Assembly: GCF_003018255.1 (NCBI RefSeq)
Contig: NZ_CP027440.1
Length of the DNA stretch: 64,000 nt
Strand: one strand, 5' to 3'
Source of the DNA: Escherichia coli
GTDB lineage: Bacteria > Pseudomonadota > Gammaproteobacteria > Enterobacterales > Enterobacteriaceae
In this document: one piece after another, positions 19,830 to 20,900 of the stretch
Layout of the letters: each line of letters opens with the position of its first letter
Numbering within the stretch: position 1 is the first letter of the stretch
The notes under the pieces: model-generated
Seen by the model: the letters and a program-made list of their open reading frames with translations, nothing else
Database searches by the model: none
Told to the model about the DNA's origin: nothing
Made by a program: the position numbers and the translations under genes

Positions 19830-20900
19830 TAAGTAGCTGATCCTAATACCGCTACACTTTAGCCAGCCCATGCTTTCCACCGGGGAATGGGCTGACGGTA
19901 TCCATAAAGTGACGAACCTTTTTCAACAGTTGCCACATTGAACGGCACTGGTGATTTCGGGTTATTGTTTCATGAAGCGCCTGCCACAACCGTTCGACAT
20001 GATTGACCCATGGCGAGTAAATTGGCTGATAAATCACCCTGAACTTTGGGTTTGCTTTCAGCCAGCGCAACGTTTCACAGCTTTTGTGGGTGATGTAGTT
20101 ATCGACAATGAGCGTAATCTTTTTTGCCCGTCAGTATGTCTCCTTCAGATGTTTTAACAGCCTGATAAATAAGGATGAACCTTTACTGTTTCCACCCACG
20201 TAGCTGACTTTGCCCGTACCACTGTGCAGCGCACCGGCAAGATAGTACTTTTCATTCCGGCCCGGCGTAACAACGCGCTTTTGCTGCCCGCGTAACTGCC
20301 AGTCTGCGCCGATTTTGGGATTGAGGTGGATCTCCACTTCATCTTCGTAAAACACAGGGTGTTCTATGCTACAACTGACTAACGCTACATTAATCGCTGC
20401 CATTTTTTCTTCCTTATTCGGGCCCCGGATACGCAGTGTTGGTGCTGCTCTGCGCCATACCAGTTCGGCTGCAGGTAACCATCGCCGGGAGAATGCTTAA
20501 CAAGCTCACGCAGCAATGCGCAAATATGCTCGAACGGCCAGCGCCTCTCACGTCCTGACGGCAATGACTTCAGGCCTTCAACACCCGACAGCGTGAACCA
20601 GTTAATCCAGCGACCAATCGATGAGCGAGCACAGCAGAGTGTTCTGGCAGCATGACTGACGGTGTCACCACGATGCAGCATCAGCATGGCTGTGAGCCGC
20701 CGGGCGTGGTTTTTTGTCCTTTGTTTTATGGATCGTTTTCTGGATCAGGCGTCGTTCAGTTCTGGGTATTGGTGCTATGATCGGCACTGCTCCGTCCGGT
20801 TGGTGATTTGGGATATTCAGCGATTGATCAGATCGCATAATCGACTCTGTAACAACCTGAACGGTGTCGGGGTGGTAACATAGGTTAGGAAACAGGGTGC
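19830..20900 (-). mobile_element. Degenerate IS630-family insertion sequence remnant
   Basis: Three consecutive minus-strand ORFs (19852-20070, 20131-20403, 20385-20687) together resemble one IS630/Tc1-mariner transposase (C-terminal YSPWVNHVERLWQALH motif) broken by frameshifts. Confidence 0.6.
19852..20687 (-). pseudogene. IS630-family transposase, frameshifted/truncated
   Basis: Transposase reading frame split across three ORFs; no single intact ORF. Confidence 0.55.

Follow-up and report, generated by a model that had tools for sequence, protein, structure and literature searches.

The closest described systems for the locus considered here belong to the IS630/Tc1/mariner superfamily (with IS630 of Shigella sonnei as the prototype), the insertion of which takes place, in the case of the IS630 family, at a TA that becomes duplicated, with a preference of IS630 for CTAG targets (PMC2170065, citing the Tenzen references). 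The DNA in question, called “the window” below, is a 64-kb stretch of an Escherichia coli chromosome (the cus - pheP - ybdK ... entD - fepA - fes - entF region), and positions 19830-20842 of its minus strand (1013 bp, as delimited by the extent of IS630 homology) are occupied by an IS630-family insertion sequence in a state of decay, with no other IS630 copy present in the window. What this copy shares with the superfamily is the domain layout (an N-terminal pair of helix-turn-helix (HTH) motifs and a DDE_3 core), a spacing of 35 residues between the second catalytic D and the E (counted both in an intact relative and in the window copy), an inverted repeat overlapping the stop codon and a CTA(G) flank, whereas an intact ORF, the left inverted repeat, ~45 bp of the 5′ end and 97 bp of internal sequence are missing from it. 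Its ancestor would presumably have moved in cut-and-paste fashion with TA duplication, as shown for ISY100 in the same source (PMC2170065).

Intact relatives of the window copy are found on plasmids, with the nucleotide identity over the shared ~1.0 kb amounting to 94.8-95.2% for the Pantoea agglomerans plasmid copies (NZ_CP143409.1, WP_137244558.1) and 91-93% for the P. stewartii, Salmonella and E. coli ones; within the coding region alone, the respective values are 95.2% for the P. agglomerans copy and 92-93% for the P. stewartii and E. coli plasmid copies. The P. agglomerans copies have a near-identical right end (two substitutions in the terminal inverted repeat) and, once the lesions of the window copy are repaired, the same coding frame, but they are ~1.15 kb long and possess both inverted repeats, CTA...TAG flanks and 343 codons, compared with 1013 bp and a single end in the window. 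The E. coli plasmid copies (pCFSAN004179G, WP_065224993.1), which have the same architecture at 91-92% identity, come closest among the intact copies of E. coli itself, and, as they are more distant than those of Pantoea, mere decay of the common E. coli plasmid variant does not account for the window copy. One record of the plasmid collection is at least 99% identical to the remnant and contains neither of its flanks. Three intact copies, from an E. coli plasmid (L002), a P. agglomerans plasmid (L006) and a P. stewartii plasmid (L007), served as the references for all of the lesion calls described further on, and each of them carries a single 343-codon ORF.

Instead of one uninterrupted ORF of ~343 codons, the window copy has its coding sequence spread over four pieces, given below after the pseudogene as a whole:

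19852-20787, minus strand: IS630-family transposase pseudogene, 936 bp as compared with 1032 bp when intact (PGAP annotation, Pfam, NF033545 and codon alignments)
19852-20070, minus strand: ORF of 72 aa, matching the C-terminal part of Pfam DDE_3 (E 2.3e-6)
20131-20403, minus strand: ORF of 90 aa, matching the N-terminal part of Pfam DDE_3 (E 9.6e-6)
20385-20687, minus strand: ORF of 100 aa with HTH_29 and HTH_23 matches (E 7e-7 and 1e-6), as well as HTH_28 and HTH_32
within ORF 20665-20838, minus strand: fourth piece, comprising the first 24 codons of the gene (ORF list and codon alignment)

The frame-repaired translation scores 203.6 bits (E 4.5e-60) against the equivalog model NF033545 of NCBIfam (IS630 family transposase), the cutoff of which is 100 bits, and all three catalytic residues (D, D and E, within FYEDEV, LIVDNY and NHVERLW, respectively) are kept in the repaired alignment, all of them in broken frames. 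With domain content, family model and nucleotide identity all in agreement, window 19830-20842 is an IS630-family element by descent. The original prediction, in which three consecutive minus-strand ORFs made up most of an IS630-type transposase that was frameshifted, decayed and devoid of an intact frame, is borne out in these respects: the three ORFs are present with their DDE_3 and HTH matches, the gene belongs to the IS630 family by its NF033545 score and by 92-95% nucleotide identity to intact copies, and the longest ORF within the element encodes 100 aa, as opposed to the 343 aa of intact relatives. The extent proposed for it (19830-20900), in turn, is correct for 19830-20842, whereas 20843-20900 is part of a different IS remnant. 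That the remnant is an IS630-family pseudogene is already known and recorded in public RefSeq annotation, where, in three complete E. coli genomes with a 100% identical remnant region (megablast), the equivalent of 19852-20787 is labelled “IS630 family transposase; frameshifted; internal stop” by PGAP; the PGAP name given to the window copy and all of its close relatives is only “IS630 family transposase”.

What remains of the ends of the element can be listed as follows:

19829-19831, strand not applicable: flanking C plus TA (CTA, half of the preferred CTAG target), read from the sequence
19832-19857, minus strand: intact right (3′) terminal inverted repeat, overlapping the transposase stop codon (19852-19854)
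20839-20842, strand not applicable: truncation junction (the fifth of the lesions discussed below), with IS630 homology ending ~45 bp before the true left end

The right inverted repeat aligns almost base for base with the ends of the P. agglomerans, P. stewartii and E. coli plasmid copies, homology to the intact copies ends at 19829-19830 on this side, and the CTA at 19829-19831 is the sole remaining trace of the IS630 target site, the three intact relatives having CTA...TAG flanks at this same point. On the left, the match to every intact relative breaks at 20840-20842, and the left inverted repeat is missing together with its TA; an inverted-repeat search of the 118 bp beyond 20842 gave a score of 12 (shuffle mean 12.6), while the intact Pantoea control scored 28. 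Thus, of the two terminal inverted repeats and the TA duplication that had been suggested as a check around 19.8 and 20.9 kb, there is an intact right end with its C-preceded TA at 19.83 kb, and the left end and its junction near 20.9 kb are deleted. The junction between the IS110-type sequence and the right end of IS630 reads CCATTCGCTTCTAAGTAGCTGATCC in the window, and the truncation junction on the other side, GATCGCATAATCGACTCTGTAAC, lies in a microhomology (IS630, ATAAACCGGAC; IS110-type tail, GTAAACCGAC; window, ATAATCGAC).

A candidate left end at 20885-20888 (minus-strand “CTAACC...”, 43 nt upstream of the homology break) was also considered, being located near the expected start of the left repeat and having joined flanks that would recreate a CTAG target. 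It was rejected: these 43 nt are unlike the left inverted repeat of any relative, their complementarity to the right inverted repeat of the element itself is no better than that of shuffles, and two plasmids introduced below (from Scandinavium and Salmonella) are continuous through the equivalent position, barring a 10-bp indel. As both of these run uninterrupted through it, the CTA at 20886-20888 is coincidental.

The surroundings of the remnant are themselves made of IS pieces, and the interval 19734-21122 is a patchwork of truncated ones, the identifiable parts of which, apart from the IS630 copy, are these:

19779-19829, plus strand: internal fragment, with a stop codon, of an IS110-family transposase gene, containing the IS630 insertion point
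20839-20959, plus strand: probable 3′ non-coding end of an IS110 element (81% to positions 2497-2628 of L008, 79% to L010)
20951-21095, plus strand: final 145 bp of an IS3-family element (C-terminus of orfB and right end; 85% to positions 2001-2145 of L003)

Here, L008 is Scandinavium goeteborgense pSg66741_1, L010 is Salmonella pRM11065-1 and L003 is an intact IS3-family element in E. coli O111. On both of the former plasmids, an IS110 pseudogene is followed by an IS3 element in the order and orientation of the window flanks, the differences being that these plasmids have no IS630 there, and that the window is without ~550 bp of IS110 and all but 145 bp of IS3. The left and the right matches of the window (19779 onwards and 20839-20959) are colinear and in the same orientation on pSg66741_1, with ~550 bp missing between them, and since both flanks match one IS110 locus in the same order and orientation, the IS630 copy lies nested within the remains of an IS110-family element (about 19779-19829 and 20839-20959). 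The assignment of the left flank to IS110 draws on a short match, 82.5% over 40 bp between 19779-19818 and L008 1905-1944, which is significant when compared with shuffles (score of 45 versus 17.9 +/- 2.1, with 0 of 500 reaching it), and weaker IS110 similarity reaches back to about 19752. The right flank (20839-20959) is probably the IS110 3′ non-coding end, judging by its position in the two plasmids: on L008, its equivalent lies just downstream of the IS110-family pseudogene and just upstream of the IS3-family element. The conceptual translation of that pseudogene matches Transposase_20 at 24.0 bits (E 5.2e-5), over the cutoff of 21.3, and DEDD_Tnp_IS110 at 23.4 bits (E 5.6e-5), under the 29-bit Pfam cutoff. 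The left flank (19705-19831) had no match in the plasmid collection, and no intact progenitor (i.e., an IS110 interrupted by a complete IS630) was found.

As for the IS3 piece, it is joined to the IS110-type tail through a 9-bp microhomology (GGCAGCAAA), and more than 2400 E. coli genomes match the query in this part (20951-21095) only. A 68-bp part of 20839-20959 (20885-20952) matches ~1800 plasmid records (989 from Klebsiella and 760 from Escherichia) at 80-86%, and in L008, L009 and L010 it is always located directly upstream of the left end of an IS3-family element; it may represent a preferred target of IS3 or an IS110-tail/IS3 junction that is widespread. Insertion of the IS630 copy into an IS3-family orfB, as prompted by ORF 20911-21048 with its OrfB-like C-terminus (no Pfam match), was rejected, as the joined flanks show IS3 homology for 20951-21095 only and the upstream half of that ORF derives from the IS110-type tail.

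All of this is situated within a segment foreign to E. coli K-12, which spans 13310 to about 21690, with K-12 homology ending at 13309 (inside hokE) and resuming at 21123. The segment holds an IS4/IS5-type remnant, a dispersin-like gene, a five-gene cassette, the IS patchwork and most of entD. The dispersin/CexE-like gene (120 aa; Pfam Dispersin PF28204, precomputed data) and the aatPABCD-like cassette (FtsX-like permease, TolC-like outer membrane protein, HlyD-like adaptor, ABC ATPase and Lnt-like N-acyltransferase) occupy window 14331-19704, the GC content of the cassette being 27-35%, and the cassette content and gene order agree with those of the described AatPABCD/dispersin system, substrate gene just upstream included (PMC7943197; PMC7478709). 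At 78.9% identity over 5.4 kb, the cassette resembles an aat-type locus on E. coli plasmid pDLI.5a (situated there near capU and a polysaccharide deacetylase gene), this homology ending at 19733, and a chromosomal aat-like cassette between hokE and entD is present in 3 of the 5426 complete E. coli genomes. The same fraction, 3/5426, has the divergent entD segment at the megablast level.

Several further observations were made on the two arms of the island and on its vicinity. On the left, the IS4/IS5-type transposase remnant (about 13326-13780) begins where core homology ends in hokE, a toxin gene that seems to be truncated by the island junction; a sok antitoxin RNA is found at 13113-13268 (Rfam RF01794, 85.7 bits), and a 119-bp stretch at 14188-14306, probably a dispersed repeat, is 77% identical to the K-12 cusC-cusF intergenic region on the opposite strand. 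On the right, upstream of entD, an apparently intact IS3-family element (21873-23306; orfAB with programmed frameshift, PGAP 21905-23253) lies between fepA and entD, has duplicated 3 bp (TTC) of a REP-like site, is shared by all eight of the related assemblies and may uncouple entD from upstream transcription. The stretch at 21776-21851 is probably a REP-type repeat upstream of entD, its first 40 bp (21776-21815) recurring at 100% identity in an intergenic position of E. coli O111 that is unrelated (L003 3192-3231) and its 21810-21851 part matching the ES036 (CssrF) sRNA of Rfam on the minus strand (44.4 bits). The fepA gene (23363-25603) is intact in the window (746 codons) and annotated as frameshifted in strain DETEC-S792, where an indel is found at the position equivalent to window 25022, so that the window does not come from this strain.

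Where the foreign segment ends has a direct bearing on the role of the IS630 copy. The entD gene (21123-21751) is chimeric: its 3′ ~560 bp, from 21123 on, are 76-78% identical to K-12, the identity jumps to 99% at about 21696, with the 5′ end and the upstream region being 96-99% identical to K-12, and the switch near 21696 looks, from these identities, like a homologous-recombination breakpoint. A donor for the divergent part of entD was sought in the plasmid collection, which gave only E. coli chromosomal-type entD at 79-81%. The placement of the remnant at the right edge of the island therefore fails, as foreign DNA continues past it through the IS3 fragment and the ~560 bp of divergent entD to ~21696, and the idea that it marks how the island arrived is not supported, the copy being nested in an IS110 remnant and the only one of its kind in the 64-kb window.

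The least improbable of the rival explanations, although very unlikely, is a version of that idea, according to which IS630 was the agent or is the scar of the integration of the island, either as a composite bounded by IS630 copies or through an IS630-mediated insertion beside entD. The remnant is indeed located between the Aat-like cassette (plasmid aat homology ending at 19733, see above) and entD, and IS630-based composite transposons do exist (Tenzen and Ohtsubo 1991, as cited in PMC2170065), yet no second IS630 copy or end was found anywhere in the window, the left side of the island has an IS4/IS5-type remnant instead, the IS630 copy sits inside another IS fragment, and the foreign DNA runs beyond it into entD, up to the recombination-like breakpoint. 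The IS630 copy looks more like a passenger, inserted where the DNA was already rich in IS sequences, than like an agent of integration.

How the remnant behaves across genomes was assessed within related assemblies, with the exact EntD protein of the window being present in 129 index blocks of the collection. All eight of the contexts listed share the order fepA - IS3 - entD - 1426-bp gene-free gap - aat-like genes - dispersin - ybdK, and the 1426-bp aatD-entD interval differs from that of the window by 0-2 SNPs in these eight assemblies, which stem from different projects. When window 11000-32000 is compared with the eight (L011-L018), SNPs in the flanks are clustered and reach up to 20-44 per kb, while the island has 1-3 per kb; the flank clusters lie at 11-13 kb, 23-27 kb and 29-32 kb, and the IS3 insertion (21873-23306) is almost invariant. 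Such a SNP distribution suggests either that the flanks have recombined or that the island has been transferred between backgrounds. With the mosaic being near-identical across assemblies that have variable flanks, the lesions of the IS630 copy are real and predate the spread of the segment.

The near-invariance of the 1426-bp mosaic next to far more variable flanks could also be read as a sign of exaptation, i.e., of an HTH-only protein or regulator made from the 100-aa ORF 20385-20687 (which does still match Pfam HTH_29 and HTH_23), or of a transcription insulator, terminator or buffer between the convergent aatD-like gene and entD. This is a highly improbable explanation, as it is the entire island that is near-invariant and not the mosaic alone, so recent common ancestry explains the conservation of the latter, and the comparison with the nearest intact copy gives 22 nonsynonymous and 18 synonymous codon differences (a descriptive count, not a formal dN/dS), a pattern of relaxed constraint that is consistent with some drift after inactivation. 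Promoter-like and terminator-like matches were no commoner in the remnant region than in shuffles, and an Rfam scan gave no family inside the remnant. It is equally improbable that the IS mosaic as a whole (IS110 fragment, IS630 remnant, IS110 tail and IS3 end) has been kept unchanged for a function to its neighbours, and nothing observed requires this.

Five lesions separate the window copy from a functional element, and the +1 insertion, the 97-bp deletion and the TGA among them are called identically in the codon-level alignments with all three intact references; in addition to the truncation junction at 20839-20842 given above (lesion 5), they are as follows:

20785-20787, minus strand: lesion 1, start codon ATG changed to GTG (all three references begin with ATG)
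20710-20715, minus strand: lesion 2, +1 base in a homopolymer (A6 versus A5 in intact copies; T6 on the plus strand)
20486-20490, minus strand: lesion 3, junction of a 97-bp deletion removing reference CDS positions 299-395
20131-20133, minus strand: lesion 4, nonsense change CGG to TGA at reference codon 251 (the same stop against the three references)

The extra base of lesion 2 shifts the frame after codon 24, and lesion 3 takes out ~32 codons between the HTH and the DDE domains, downstream of the paired N-terminal HTH region that is retained in ORF 20385-20687. As +1 and -97 sum to -96, the frame is restored downstream of the deletion, which is why three of the four ORF pieces share one frame (the ORF ends 20838, 20403 and 20070 are each 0 mod 3, as against 2 mod 3 for 20687). 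In intact copies, the short repeats TCC(T)GGCGAT lie on either side of the stretch lost, an arrangement that would be expected for slippage. The TGA of lesion 4 ends ORF 20131-20403, and the second catalytic D lies just downstream of it.

Programmed frameshifting does occur in some IS families, and the location of the +1 shift in an A-run would be in line with the split ORFs belonging to a functional IS630 member that relies on programmed ribosomal frameshifting instead of being lesioned. The probability of this is, however, next to nil, as relatives at 92-95% identity have one uninterrupted 343-codon ORF with A5 at the site, and no frameshifting could rescue an in-frame TGA, a 97-bp deletion or an absent left inverted repeat. 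An origin of the frameshifts in faulty sequencing or assembly of one genome is just as hard to believe: even though one of the lesions is a homopolymer-length difference typical of long-read errors, such faults would have to recur identically in three complete genomes and, within the 0-2 SNPs noted above, in eight draft assemblies from different projects, and neither the 97-bp deletion nor the TGA nor the end truncation is a type of error.

Very probably, then, the locus harbors an inert IS630-family fossil that was inactivated in steps and carried along with a foreign segment, and decayed IS copies of this kind are commonplace. In the sequence of events that we infer, an IS630-family copy (Tc1/mariner-like, with a DDE transposase and cut-and-paste transposition) would have entered an IS110-family transposase gene at a TA lying in a CTA(G) context, in an IS-rich stretch beside the dispersin/Aat-like secretion cassette. 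A putatively microhomology-mediated deletion would then have removed the left inverted repeat and the 5′ end of IS630 together with ~0.5 kb of IS110. Later on, slippage may have deleted 97 bp, a homopolymer may have gained one base by a slip, and the nonsense mutation and the start-codon change may have arisen. The remnant would have travelled with the foreign segment (13310 to about 21690), and it is fixed in the E. coli lineage or lineages that carry this segment. With no transposase encoded and only one end left, it is predicted to be neither self-mobile nor mobilised in trans.

By itself, the IS630 remnant matters little. As the foreign segment extends into entD, the boundary of the island is not to be drawn at this remnant, and the nested IS fragments (IS630 within IS110, beside IS3), whose arrangement also occurs on plasmids of other Enterobacteriaceae, hint in a modest way that an IS-rich, plasmid-like setting harbored the right arm of the Aat-like island before it came to reside in the E. 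coli chromosome.
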